Positions 59,444 to 64,000 are shown, numbered from the stretch's first letter. The stretch: 64,000 nt of DNA from an uncultured Mycoplasmatota bacterium (GCA_900546715.1 UREA01000001.1:9141-73140), one strand, 5' to 3'. Translations and numbers: made by a program. The notes: generated by a model not told the origin, from the sequence alone.

Positions 59444-59791
59444 TTATTCATTTAAAGCACTATATGCGCCACTACAAGTATCACCGCCAGGGTTAGATAT
59501 ACATGATCTACAAATTGCAGAATCATCATTAACCGAAGTATCAACTACTCCAATTACAAATGATACAACAGTTGGAACAAAGAAAATACAAACTGCAGCA
59601 CCAATACGCATTGCTAATGATTTTACTGATTTTGATATAGCTTTATCATCACTTGATACAACCGCTTTTCCTAAATCTATCATTCCTAGTACAATTAGTA
59701 TTATTGGAATAGCAATTTTAAAAACCATTAAAAAATATCCTACCAGCCGCCATATATTAGCAGTTTCTGCACAAAAAACATCTGGTGTCAT
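59444..59791 (-). CDS. Small 2-TM protein with Cys-rich tail (paralog of 59866-60234), VirB2/Maff2-like architecture
   Basis: From ATG 59791 (GAGGAG 5 nt upstream): MTPDVFCAETANIWRLVGYFLMVFKIAIPIILIVLGMIDLGKAVVSSDDKAISKS..IFFVPTVVSFVIGVV..CRSCISNPGGDTC. Shares IW.(L/I)VGY, IDLGKAVVSSD and IFF(V/I)PT with its neighbour. Confidence 0.6.
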   Translation of the reverse strand: MTPDVFCAETANIWRLVGYFLMVFKIAIPIILIVLGMIDLGKAVVSSDDKAISKSVKSLAMRIGAAVCIFFVPTVVSFVIGVVDTSVNDDSAICRSCISNPGGDTCSGAYSALNE

Positions 59792-59865
59792 ACACACACT
59801 CCTCTCATTACATAATCTTATTTTACGATAAAATCCTTATAAAGTCAACATTTATCCCGCAATTT

Positions 59866-60234
59866 CTATCCTACTGGATAAATCGCATCATTATTTAAAT
59901 CATTTGGATCATATGAAGTATCACATGAATCTGGATGTGTTAAACAATTAAAACAATTCTCATAATCAGCATGCATTTCTTCCGACAATCCTCCAACAAC
60001 ATCAAATATAAAATCAATAATTGTAGGAATAAAGAAAATACATATACCAAGTATAATTCTTTTAACTAAATTTCCTCCAGCATCTTTTATAATCTTTTGA
60101 TCACTTGATACAACCGCTTTTCCTAAATCAATAATACCTAAAATAATAATTACAAGAGGTATCACAATTTTTACAATAACAATTATATACCCTACTATTT
60201 GCCATATTCTAGCACTTTTATAACAAAAATTCAT
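59866..60234 (-). CDS. Small 2-TM protein with Cys-rich tail (paralog of 59444-59791)
   Basis: 122 aa. AGGAGG RBS. ..IWQIVGYIIVIVKIVIPLVIIILGIIDLGKAVVSSDQKII..CIFFIPTIIDFIFDVV..CFNCLTHPDSC. Confidence 0.65.
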   Translation of the reverse strand: MNFCYKSARIWQIVGYIIVIVKIVIPLVIIILGIIDLGKAVVSSDQKIIKDAGGNLVKRIILGICIFFIPTIIDFIFDVVGGLSEEMHADYENCFNCLTHPDSCDTSYDPNDLNNDAIYPVG

Positions 60235-60247
60235 AACCTAAAACCTC

Positions 60248-61237
60248 CTATTTAAAGATACTAAATAATCCCGAACTACCTTTTTGATCTATTCTACTAA
60301 AACCTAATGCTGATAAAAAGGCATTAAGAATTGGTTGATTATCCAATTTATCATCTAAATAAGGTAAATTGAAAAATACTTTACTACCACTTTCTTTTTC
60401 AAAATCTTCAACATCTTTATCACTTAATACACTTCTATTTAATACTATTTTCTTACCTCGTAATTTTTCAAATATTTCATTATCTTTTCTAATTAATTTA
60501 TTAAGTTGTATTCTTCCCGGTTCAATTAAATAAACTATATCATGACAATAATTTTCCACAGATGAATCATTTAAATCCACAAGTATTGCATCGCAATCAA
60601 TATTCTGCGCCAAAAAATCGTTAAATGTTACACTTGAGACACTTTCTAAAGAATCATCATTAAAAAATATAAAATCATTCCCATCAACTTCCACTGCTTT
60701 TACTTTATAATTAGCCTCTAAATGTAATTTAAGTAAATAAACTAGTGTAGTAGCTCCAGCATGTTCAGTAACATTCTTAAATCCAATTATCTTTTGACCA
60801 ATTTTTCCTTTAGTATTATCCTTAACATTTTCATTTAATGCTGGTTTTTCAAAACCATTTATATTATGATATTTAGCTACATCTTTATAAGAATTAGGAT
60901 TATTAATTAAGTAATTAATATCATTTACATTAGTTGCAAAATTATATATTCCCATTGATACTAATTGGGATAAATACACTGGAGAATTAACTGTTTCAGA
61001 ATCATCTAATAATAAAATTATTTTTGATGTATCAAAATTTACTGATAAATTTTGAATAACACTAATATTTTGATAATCCCTTATTGCAGTTATATCAATA
61101 ATCATTTTGTTATAATAAAAATTTGCAAATTGAGCAATCAATTCATCAACACTAAATTCTCCCTGAATATTTTTTATAACATCTATATCCAAACTAGAAA
61201 GTAATGCTTGATATTTATTTGCTATAATTACATTCAT
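60248..61237 (-). CDS. CpaE/TadZ-like protein: receiver-like N-domain plus ParA/MinD-fold domain lacking the Walker A lysine
   Basis: From ATG 61237 (AAGGTGA upstream). The C-terminal half follows the MinD/ParA strand-loop-helix pattern, but the P-loop position reads NVTEHAGATTLVYLL instead of KGGxGK[ST]T. Later AILVDLND and KIVLNRS segments match the fold. Confidence 0.5.
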   Translation of the reverse strand: MNVIIANKYQALLSSLDIDVIKNIQGEFSVDELIAQFANFYYNKMIIDITAIRDYQNISVIQNLSVNFDTSKIILLLDDSETVNSPVYLSQLVSMGIYNFATNVNDINYLINNPNSYKDVAKYHNINGFEKPALNENVKDNTKGKIGQKIIGFKNVTEHAGATTLVYLLKLHLEANYKVKAVEVDGNDFIFFNDDSLESVSSVTFNDFLAQNIDCDAILVDLNDSSVENYCHDIVYLIEPGRIQLNKLIRKDNEIFEKLRGKKIVLNRSVLSDKDVEDFEKESGSKVFFNLPYLDDKLDNQPILNAFLSALGFSRIDQKGSSGLFSIFK

Positions 61238-61241
61238 ATAT

Positions 61242-61712
61242 TCACCTTCTTTCATCTATTATTTGTGAGTTACTTCCCATAAAGTTATCAGTTCTACCTG
61301 TTATGGGAAATACACTAATTTGCCCTAAAAATGGCAATGAAAACTCATAAAATACTTTTATTTCATAATATTCATCATCTTCAACAGTTTTATATCTTTT
61401 AAAACAAAAATTATATCTTTTTCCATCTTGGGCTTCTTCATAATCACCTTCAAAGTTAGTAACACCATACCAGCCATCATCACCTTGAGGACAAGCACCA
61501 GTATTATTATAACCTTCACCTCTAAGAACATTATTTAATAAAGACATTGATTCATCTGTTATTCCTTCATGTATTTCAATAATTGAAACCATACTATTCT
61601 TAACTCGATATGCTTTATTATAATTAAGTACTAATGTTAAAAAACAAGCAAAAATAAGTATAAATAGTATCATTATTTGAAATACCCAGGTAGAACCACT
61701 TACCTCTCTCAT
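61242..61712 (-). CDS. TadE-like / pseudopilin-like protein (N-terminal hydrophobic helix)
   Basis: From ATG 61712: MREVSGSTWVFQIMILFILIFACFLTLVLNYNKAY... Paralogous to the N-terminal ~170 aa of 61715-63271 (CP.G.DG..., YY.(V/I)K(V/L)F..). Confidence 0.5.
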   Translation of the reverse strand: MREVSGSTWVFQIMILFILIFACFLTLVLNYNKAYRVKNSMVSIIEIHEGITDESMSLLNNVLRGEGYNNTGACPQGDDGWYGVTNFEGDYEEAQDGKRYNFCFKRYKTVEDDEYYEIKVFYEFSLPFLGQISVFPITGRTDNFMGSNSQIIDERR

Positions 61713-61714
61713 GA

Positions 61715-63271: not shown

Positions 63272-63279
63272 TTACATCC

Positions 63280-63525
63280 CTATCCTTTATATAAACATCT
63301 CATATCATCATATTCTACGCCATCAACAACACAGCCTTGACAATATTCAATACCATCAACAACTACTCTATTGCTACAATCACATGCGGCTTTAGAGCAT
63401 TGAGATTTAACAGTAAAATTAGCATTTAATATTGGCCAAAGGAAATAGAAAAAAAAGGTCAATAAGACCCCAACAGAAATTACTACAACCATAGTCATGT
63501 TTAAATCTTGCGTAGCCTCTTTCAT
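63280..63525 (-). CDS. Short Cys-rich pilin-like protein (paralog 2)
   Basis: 81 aa. MKEATQDLNMTMVVVISVGVLLTFFFYFLWPIL, then 7 Cys in 45 residues. Confidence 0.55.
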   Translation of the reverse strand: MKEATQDLNMTMVVVISVGVLLTFFFYFLWPILNANFTVKSQCSKAACDCSNRVVVDGIEYCQGCVVDGVEYDDMRCLYKG

Positions 63526-63557
63526 AACTTAAAACCTTTCTTTCTAAATTCATTAAA

Positions 63558-63845
63558 TTATTCTACTATTGCAATATATCCGTCATTATTTAAAGATACA
63601 TATCCAGTTGTTGTTGTATTTTCTGGATTCCACTTATCTGGATCAATTTCAGTGCCATCTGCACATACACACCATCCATCCTTTACTCCGGAAACTTCCC
63701 CATCTGGGCAAATATTTTTACATGTATTCATAGTAAGACCAGATTGAATAGATGGCCAAATAAAGAAATAGAAGAATGCTCCAACTGCTGCAATAGCAAC
63801 AACAGTAACAACAGTCATATTTAATTCGCCAGTAGCTTCTTTCAT
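63558..63845 (-). CDS. Short Cys-rich pilin-like protein (paralog 1, probable major subunit)
   Basis: 95 aa. AAGGAGG RBS and its own strong promoter. MKEATGELNMTVVTVVAIAAVGAFFYFFIWPSI followed by a small 4-Cys domain. Confidence 0.6.
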   Translation of the reverse strand: MKEATGELNMTVVTVVAIAAVGAFFYFFIWPSIQSGLTMNTCKNICPDGEVSGVKDGWCVCADGTEIDPDKWNPENTTTTGYVSLNNDGYIAIVE

Positions 63846-63877
63846 AAATTTTTTTCCTCCTTTTATATTACATATTT

Positions 63878-63906
63878 ATTATAACTTATTTTTTCTTAAA
63901 TATCAA
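63878..63906 (-). promoter_or_regulatory. Strong sigma-A promoter in front of the pilin-like genes
   Basis: Minus strand TTGATA (63906-63901), 17 nt, TATAAT (63883-63878). Confidence 0.6.
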
Positions 63907-63929
63907 TTTATTTTAAATAATTTTGTAAA

Positions 63930-64000
63930 CTAAATGCCCATCATTTGTACAACTGCTAAAATAAGTAAAATCATCATTCCAAAACCAGTACATACAAGCA
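63930..64000 (-). CDS. 3' end of a membrane protein gene (possibly a GspF/TadC-type platform protein); starts beyond the right edge
   Basis: Own translation of the open minus-strand frame: ..LVCTGFGMMILLILAVVQMMGI* (stop TAG at 63932-63930). A hydrophobic C-terminus ending ..QMxGI resembles T2SS-F-family ends. Too short for certainty. Confidence 0.3.
   Translation of the reverse strand, partial: LVCTGFGMMILLILAVVQMMGI

Follow-up and report, generated by a model that had tools for sequence, protein, structure and literature searches.

Tad/Flp loci, such as tad of A. actinomycetemcomitans, cpa of C. crescentus and tad of Bifidobacterium breve, encode a CpaF/TadA ATPase, two membrane proteins, short pilins and two proteins in TadE/TadF position, together with CpaB and the two-domain protein TadZ. 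In the monoderm B. breve the tad genes follow the order ATPase, platform, pilin and pseudopilin. The minimal Gram-positive Tad set consists of TadA, TadB, TadC, Flp and TadZ (PMC11300603). The locus described in this work occupies positions 59444-64000, on the minus strand, of a 64,000 nucleotide stretch of an uncultured Mycoplasmatota bacterium (GCA_900546715.1, UREA01000001.1:9141-73140), which in the following is called the window. We consider it probable that about 14 chromosomal genes, of which the window has the distal transcription unit, encode a highly diverged filament or pseudopilus machine of Tad type (type IVc-like) and, with similar confidence, that this machine is specific to uncultured small-genome gut Bacilli.

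Taken together with the genes found upstream in relatives, the cluster has an ATPase of this family, two membrane proteins, short pilin-like proteins and two proteins in TadE/TadF position, in the gene order of B. breve, as well as CpaB-like and TadZ-like proteins. Tad/Flp pili are the nearest known system, and most plausibly the cluster functions like one. It differs from these loci by the absence of the G/xxxxEY motif, of Glu5 and of any match to the Flp_Fap, TadE and T2SSF models, by a TadZ-like protein which has no P-loop lysine and is encoded after the pilins, by two CpaB-like copies without a tadV in the locus, and by additional genes for a DUF5411 protein, a large secreted protein and VirB2-like proteins. 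Since the pilin motifs are absent, the platform proteins are candidates and no prepilin peptidase was found in the window and the related loci, we call the cluster a divergent variant of Tad and not a member.

Two clusters of gut Firmicutes come close to it. In Roseburia, Ruminococcus and Eubacterium, gene embedding only predicts an unannotated operon, seen as "secretion-related", in which an internalin-like protein accompanies CpaF, GspF and DUF5411 (Miller et al. 2022, PMC9523054). Shared with the cluster are DUF5411, the CpaF ATPase, a large surface protein, otherwise unrecognisable genes and a host among the gut Firmicutes; unlike the cluster, that operon, compared by its description, has 8-9 genes and a recognisable PilC/GspF. 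The TANB77 pilus cluster (PMC11680825) is a cryptic Tad-like system of an uncultured small-genome gut Firmicute, in which the machinery is recognised mainly by structure and is followed by several "pilin-like" genes with one transmembrane segment and without sequence homology. This cluster of Clostridia, again compared by description, differs by its CpaB, a TadZ plus a CpaE, a TadA of 640 amino acids, a fused TadC-TadB and seven pilin-like genes of 143-621 amino acids. For neither of the two is there a description of an MKEATG family of pilin-like proteins, a TadZ-like protein lacking the P-loop lysine, VirB2-like genes or an M15 fusion, all of which are presented below. On pili of RF39, the order to which the host clade presumably belongs, nothing specific was found in the literature.

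The distal unit and the module upstream of it in relatives

Seven co-directional genes are present between a promoter and an intrinsic terminator. The features are listed in the direction of transcription; 2-TM stands for two transmembrane segments.

63930-64000, minus strand: C-terminal end (22 codons and stop) of the second polytopic membrane protein, in TadC position
63906..63878, minus strand: promoter TTGATA-17-TATAAT, in the 84-base gap 5' of small1, upstream of the pilin-like genes
63558-63845, minus strand: small1, 95 amino acids, start MKEATGELNMT, candidate major pilin with leader, hydrophobic helix and variable Cys-rich C-terminus
63280-63525, minus strand: small2, 81 amino acids, start MKEATQDLNMT, paralog of small1
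61715-63271, minus strand: TadE1-like/M15 fusion, 518 amino acids, with TadE-like module (about 1-165), linker, SH3b-like stretch and M15 domain, candidate modular minor pilin
61242-61712, minus strand: TadE2-like protein, 156 amino acids, candidate minor pilin, paralog of the N-terminal module of the 518 amino acid protein
60248-61237, minus strand: TadZ-like protein, 329 amino acids, with receiver-like N-domain and MinD/ParA-fold domain; homologues begin MNVII
59866-60234, minus strand: 2-TM protein a, 122 amino acids, VirB2-like (Pfam T4SS_pilin family)
59444-59791, minus strand: 2-TM protein b, 115 amino acids counted from ATG, paralog of 2-TM protein a
59428..59409, minus strand: intrinsic terminator, a hairpin followed by a T run, 3' of 2-TM protein b

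This layout had been proposed in the preliminary description of the window, and genes, promoter and terminator all proved to be on the minus strand where it had placed them; the junctions TAAtcATG and TGAatatATG, read directly, are exact. A TTG start for the TadE2-like gene was discarded, as the homologues start at MREVSGS. The paralogs are 37% identical for small1 and small2 (E 7.6e-11; hhalign 99.9%), 29% for the two TadE-like proteins (E 1.7e-13) and 41-44% for the 2-TM proteins (E 1e-27), and profile comparison by hhalign gave 99.9-100% for the three pairs. As 50 promoter-like sites were found in this DNA of 29% GC, against 44 expected, the score of TTGATA-17-TATAAT (11/12, the top match of the region) is by itself weak proof of a promoter. 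In 48 of 78 related loci, though, the pair keeps an equal spacing to the first small gene, also where no ATPase module is adjacent, and this conserved position is good evidence that the predicted promoter is real. A second promoter-like site, TTGACT-17-TAAAAT (59820-59848, minus strand), lies in the 74-base gap 5' of the last 2-TM gene.

The genes beyond the window edge were read from relatives. The 87 loci used comprise seven from contigs of orthologues and 80 taken from a scan of one genome per species; 80 loci were informative for co-occurrence, and in 67 the upstream sequence was sufficient to look for the ATPase module. Relatives with orthologues of the 329 amino acid protein at 75%, 87% and 92% identity have one conserved gene arrangement. 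A proximal unit encodes first a large secreted protein, which has a signal peptide and about 1,100 amino acids, then in succession a DUF5411 membrane protein (Pfam E 5e-57), a CpaB/RcpC-like pair, a CpaF/TadA-family ATPase (363-370 amino acids) and two polytopic membrane proteins of 301 and 262 amino acids. It is followed by the distal unit of the window with its own conserved promoter, two short pilin-like, two TadE-like, one TadZ-like and two VirB2-like proteins, then by a gene on the opposite strand and by uvrA, as in the window. The hydrophobic C-terminus at the window edge (63930-64000) is 55% identical to residues 241-262 of the 262 amino acid protein of locus L005 (tblastn). The whole cluster has about 14 genes in about 11.5 kb, most of the machine being beyond the window edge, and is not the "compact" one first described. 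The relatives sit on contigs of 1.2-1.3 Mb, which are possibly whole genomes.

Some of the sister genomes also provide an internal positive control. In six loci without adjacent divergent ATPase module (L053, L062, L070, L071, L074, L075) a canonical Tad locus is present 4-5 kb downstream (e.g. L053 15009-19885), composed of Flp (G/QALVEY), two TadE (G/QALVEF), CpaE (KGGVGKT), TadA, TadB and TadC, and it is readily recognised by Pfam.

The ATPase of the relatives matches Pfam T2SSE (4e-29), its best solved relatives are CpaF (1.2e-18) followed by FlaI and VirB11, and it is related to the canonical TadA of the sister genomes (hhalign 99.5%). Its sequence shows the Walker A motif GETGSGKT and the His box. 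In NCBIfam the best model is VirB11 (3e-34), accompanied by "TadA family" models, all far under their cut-offs; the VirB11 match is expected, since TadA is closest to VirB11/TrbB (PMC11300603). On these matches the ATPase is of the CpaF/TadA type. The CpaB-like pair (257 and 261 amino acids), as read from the relatives, exceeds the 21-bit cut-off of SAF with 25.8 and 25.4 bits, and matches RcpC (2e-4, 21.8 bits, cut-off 28.8) and the CpaB model TIGR03177 (8e-9, 35 bits, cut-off 71) below threshold. The 301 and 262 amino acid proteins agree with TadB and TadC in size and in their place directly after the ATPase, and with 74-75% mean pairwise identity are among the most conserved products of the cluster; they are candidates for the Tad platform.

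Other genes near the cluster include, opposite to it, one for a 510 amino acid protein (57807-59339, plus strand) with an N-terminal transmembrane segment, low complexity rich in Ser and Asn, and at least 19 consecutive Asn. This gene is conserved at the same place in 32 loci, and its product matched no family model. A few kb from the cluster are found a GH25 muramidase with an N-terminal extension of 216 amino acids (51077-52297, minus strand) and a Fic/DOC protein with a winged-helix domain (43507-44529, minus strand). In the 75%-identity relatives (L002-L004) a ToxN-family toxin gene is directly 3' of uvrA (about 16460-17050), a place where it is absent in the window and in L005. The remaining genes of the window are ordinary chromosomal genes.

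Pilin-like, TadZ-like, M15 and VirB2-like proteins

The four pilin-like families share a charged leader of six residues, M-[KR]-E-x-x-G, usually ending in Gly and followed by about 20 hydrophobic residues. In the family of small1 and small2 (130 distinct sequences) the N-terminus reads M-K-E-A-T-G-E-L-N-x-T-V, with Gly6 in 92% and Glu/Asp7 in 98%. Position 6 is Gly/Ser in 99% of the TadE1-like family (79 distinct), which also conserves Phe11 (96%) and Gln/Asn12 (84%); in the TadE2-like family (71 distinct) it is Gly in 80% and Gly/Ser in 83%, with Thr8 in 93%, Trp9 in 97% and Gln12 in 85%. This is, as far as the sequences tell, the architecture of a class III (prepilin) signal without Glu5 and EY pair, both of which are absent in all four families. 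When compared by eye, the TadE-like proteins have the register x-T-x-[IV]-F-Q at the place of the canonical TadE x-T-A-[IV]-E-F. The preliminary description had stated that the subunits lack every prepilin signature. This is right for GFxxxE, G/xxxxEY and Glu5; given the short leader to Gly/Ser and the hydrophobic helix that are kept, it is overstated. The conserved N-terminal motifs it had reported are real, and the family-wide Gly6 recasts them as a leader.

No match to the Flp_Fap, Class_IIIsignal and TadE models was obtained for the proteins of the window or of the relatives, and none to any Pfam or NCBIfam model for small1, whereas the canonical Flp and TadE of the sister genomes were detected. 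AT-rich composition was ruled out as the cause of the missed matches, the canonical Tad being detected in equally AT-rich sister genomes, and the divergence is therefore real.

Pairwise identity in small1 is 78% over the first 31 residues and 19% over the remainder, the classic pilin pattern; judged by this contrast, small1 evolves like a major pilin. Cys counts are mostly even, mostly 4 or 6. The Gln6 of small2 is an oddity of the lineage, shared by the closest relatives (L007 and similar), and if Gly were the determinant of cleavage this copy would be uncleavable. The AlphaFold2 model of the TadE2-like protein (pLDDT 84.7) has a helix at 3-47, a second one at 53-65, five beta strands and two invariant Cys. 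With an N-terminal helix of 45 residues followed by another helix and a sheet, the predicted layout is pilin-like. In a profile search of the PDB this family had no solved relative.

The TadZ-like protein could be recognised by its predicted structure. Its AlphaFold2 model (pLDDT 90.5) shows two alpha/beta domains, and Foldseek returned HypB-ATPase (6e-6), ParA (4.5e-4) and MinD (1.2e-3) for the C-domain, as well as PDB 3FKQ, an E. rectale "NtrC-like two-domain protein" (2.6e-5, 401 columns), over both domains. We take 3FKQ to be the E. rectale TadZ (Xu et al. 2012, cited in PMC6668835). The model thus folds as a TadZ-like two-domain protein, in agreement with the CpaE/TadZ-like ParA fold first proposed. 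By sequence the protein has no relative outside its own family (Pfam, NCBIfam, PDB sequence and profile searches, 40-sequence profile); scanning 40 diverse homologues one by one against Pfam gave no match either, and comparison of the family with the canonical CpaE of the sister genomes gave 0.4% in hhalign. The P-loop is degenerate (GFKNVTEHAGATT): throughout the family GK[ST] has become G[AS]T, the lysine being replaced by Ala or Ser, and ATP hydrolysis by this protein is for this reason unlikely.

The 518 amino acid protein carries, joined to its TadE-like module by a low-complexity linker, an SH3b-like stretch (SH3_3, weak) and a domain matching Pfam Peptidase_M15 at residues 349-502 (31.6 bits, cut-off 27). 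The motifs H-x6-D (SNHNRACAVD) and EWWH are intact and align to VanX 1R44, by which the C-terminal domain is identified as an M15 peptidase (VanX-type, PF01427). The fusion is restricted to the clade of the window (7 of 79 TadE1 homologues); some TadE2 homologues (P0291, P0330) have a C-terminal PF09479 (Listeria-Bacteroides repeat) extension instead. Variable functional modules on a constant N-terminal module argue that the TadE-like proteins are displayed outside the cell. The PilB and PilC proteins of Streptococcus sanguinis are modular minor pilins, with an N-terminal pilin module and a functional C-terminal module. The candidate minor pilin described here differs from these in that its pilin module is not canonical and its C-terminal module is a peptidoglycan peptidase of the SH3b-M15 type.

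The 2-TM paralogs were present as first described, and their VirB2-like (T4SS_pilin) match had been overlooked. PF18895 (T4SS_pilin) matches 37 of 42 family members at E <= 1 (best E 7.6e-7) and CagC six of 42; in the window, protein b gives E 0.48 and 11 bits against a cut-off of 26.6, and protein a has no match at E <= 1. A 2-TM hairpin with both termini on the same side fits the T4SS_pilin family, to which the paralogs may weakly be assigned; PDB sequence and profile searches gave no match. PF18895 serves as marker of VirB2-like pilins in Patescibacteria, where tandem arrays are common (10.1101/2025.01.22.634366). As in those arrays, tandem and fast-evolving 2-TM hairpins match the same Pfam model; the arrays stand beside VirB4-type genes of type IV secretion systems, and the pair described here stands beside a Tad-like machine without VirB4.

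With such pilin arrays being typical of the Patescibacteria systems, with VirB11 as best, far sub-threshold, NCBIfam model of the ATPase and with most 2-TM homologues matching T4SS_pilin or CagC, the cluster might be seen as a type IV secretion or conjugation-like contact apparatus made of a VirB11-like ATPase, VirB2-like pilins and a VirB1-like wall hydrolase. We regard this as highly improbable. VirB4, VirD4, VirB6 and a relaxase are present in none of the flanks, and without VirB4, coupling protein or relaxase nearby the cluster is not read as a type IV secretion system; the closeness of TadA to VirB11 would in any case produce the ATPase match, the CpaB-like and TadZ-like proteins are typical of Tad, 21 of 80 loci have no 2-TM genes, and the cluster is chromosomal and absent from plasmid collections.

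Distribution, and evidence for and against a Tad-type machine

In a large protein collection the 329 amino acid protein has 3,506 relatives; among the matches listed none has a functional name, and several stem from bins of gut metagenomes such as "Candidatus Onthocola" and "Mycoplasma sp. CAG:776". The scan of one genome per species found at least 565 loci with a relative, and all 80 scan loci examined belong to uncultured gut Bacilli, "Tenericutes" or "Mycoplasma" bins. Plasmid and phage collections searched with the same protein gave no match, by which an origin from a mobile element was rejected. The host had first been called spore-forming, for which no evidence was seen.

The four pilin-like genes are found together with the gene of the 329 amino acid protein in 77-80 of the 80 informative loci, as the first proposal required, and the 2-TM genes are next to them in 59. 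The ATPase module is immediately upstream in 50 of 67 loci. The T2SSE ATPase which had been predicted to lie past position 64000 is thus directly upstream in relatives; of the platform genes predicted there, two polytopic membrane proteins are in position, without T2SSF signal, and the predicted prepilin peptidase was not found in the window and the 87 loci. The mean pairwise identity of the ATPase and the membrane proteins is 74-77%, versus 19-45% for the putatively exposed parts.

Several observations weigh against a Tad-type machine. In 17 of 67 loci the ATPase module is not within 8-10 kb. The 301 and 262 amino acid proteins show no T2SSF signal by Pfam, NCBIfam, PDB profile search or hhalign, the alignment of their families to canonical TadB/TadC by the latter giving less than 4% versus 93% for the TadB-TadC control. 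With a local T2SSF profile, built from the canonical TadB and TadC of six related loci, the 301 amino acid family is the top non-self match of 1,853 open reading frames at a non-significant E of about 0.4; the alignment is colinear over the cytoplasmic domain and the next transmembrane segment. A relaxed hhalign likewise gave a colinear, non-significant alignment. The pilin-like families have no profile similarity in hhalign to the canonical Flp and TadE of the sister genomes, and among all the divergent families the ATPase alone is related to its canonical Tad counterpart. Position 6 is Glu in 17% of the TadE2 homologues and Gln in small2 of the window, which is hard to square with a cleavage that must follow Gly. 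For the TadE2 model Foldseek gave no significant match in the PDB (best E 0.42). Finally, no open reading frame with the A24 motif GxGD[..][KR] and at least three transmembrane segments is present in the 1.53 Mb of the window and the 87 loci. Genes for prepilin peptidases frequently lie away from the other genes of their system (PMC6668835).

Part of these observations, namely the 17 loci without adjacent module, the absence of Glu5, of a peptidase in 1.53 Mb and of a pilin fold match, would also suit a distal unit that is independent of the ATPase module and serves envelope or cell wall remodelling by N-terminally anchored, uncleaved bitopic proteins with a ParA-like scaffold; its own conserved promoter, the M15 peptidase and the GH25 wall enzyme in the neighbourhood fit as well. 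We think this quite unlikely. In 75% of loci the genes follow the ATPase module in a fixed order. In L081, a locus additional to the 17, about 4.4 kb (about 4900-9250) is inserted precisely in the gap that holds the promoter, between the 262 amino acid gene and the first small gene, so that the two units are there just parted; and six of the split loci have a canonical Tad locus at a distance of 4-5 kb. Both the TadZ-like fold and the short leader shared by four proteins are, moreover, hallmarks of pili.

It is less easy to draw the border between an external filament and a piston. The machine could be Tad-derived and have no external pilus, the small proteins being pseudopilins of a short pseudopilus that exports the large upstream protein or brings DNA or nutrients in through the wall, in the manner of type II secretion or Com systems. 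In favour of this are the protein with signal peptide, which is the first gene of the cluster in 46 loci, the secretion-related prediction for the related DUF5411/CpaF/GspF operon of Clostridia (PMC9523054), the seemingly small host genomes and the wall peptidase fused to one subunit. ComEA, ComEC and substrate-recognition genes, on the other hand, were not seen in the flanks, and the extreme variability of the small1 C-terminus suits a surface-exposed filament better than a hidden piston; we give the piston some weight, while regarding it as rather unlikely.

The divergent cluster is real, conserved and unannotated by current models, and the proteins are undescribed, as first proposed, in that no characterised family matched the pilin-like, platform or 329 amino acid proteins. 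The preliminary interpretation is upheld in its main line. A diverged Tad-type machine remains our preferred explanation; it is known from the genes alone, and its main uncertainty is the processing and polymerisation of the subunits.

Proposed functioning and meaning for the host clade

In a Tad-type machine the ATPase and the two membrane proteins would pull the small proteins from the membrane, and from them a thin filament or pseudopilus would be polymerised, with small1 as major subunit and the two TadE-like proteins priming or capping it. The M-[KR]-E-x-x-[G/S] leader common to the subunits points to processing by a prepilin-type peptidase, which would be encoded elsewhere in the genome. 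Glu5 is lost and the small pilins have an invariant Glu/Asp at what would be position +1, which suggests a packing of subunits different from that of canonical Flp pili. The CpaB-like pair may form an extracytoplasmic collar, and the TadZ-like protein may position or scaffold the machine without hydrolysing ATP. In the clade of the window the SH3b-M15 part of the TadE-like protein could, at the tip, open the wall of the producer or attack that of a neighbour.

A more far-reaching idea, which we consider unlikely, is that of a separate, unclassified branch of the type IV filament superfamily, without Glu5-based packing and perhaps without A24 processing, which has VirB2-like hairpins and, in some clades, a pilin-borne peptidase, and which works as an epibiotic or parasitic apparatus for attaching to other bacteria and breaching their wall. 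If true, it would be a contact apparatus comparable in role to type IV pili and type IV secretion systems in Patescibacteria.

For annotation, the consequence is that standard pipelines and the models for detection of type IV filaments miss the system, save for the ATPase, DUF5411, weak CpaB signals and the M15 domain. For pilus biology, a Tad-type machine of this kind would be a natural case of a CpaF-driven system whose subunits have neither Glu5 nor the Flp motif and whose platform candidates and TadZ have drifted past profile detection, and the textbook Tad locus of sister genomes makes a direct comparison with the divergent cluster possible. The host clade is composed of prevalent, uncultured gut Bacilli with small genomes. 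A surface machine kept at no fewer than 565 loci despite genome reduction is a strong candidate for the means by which these bacteria attach to partners or exploit them.

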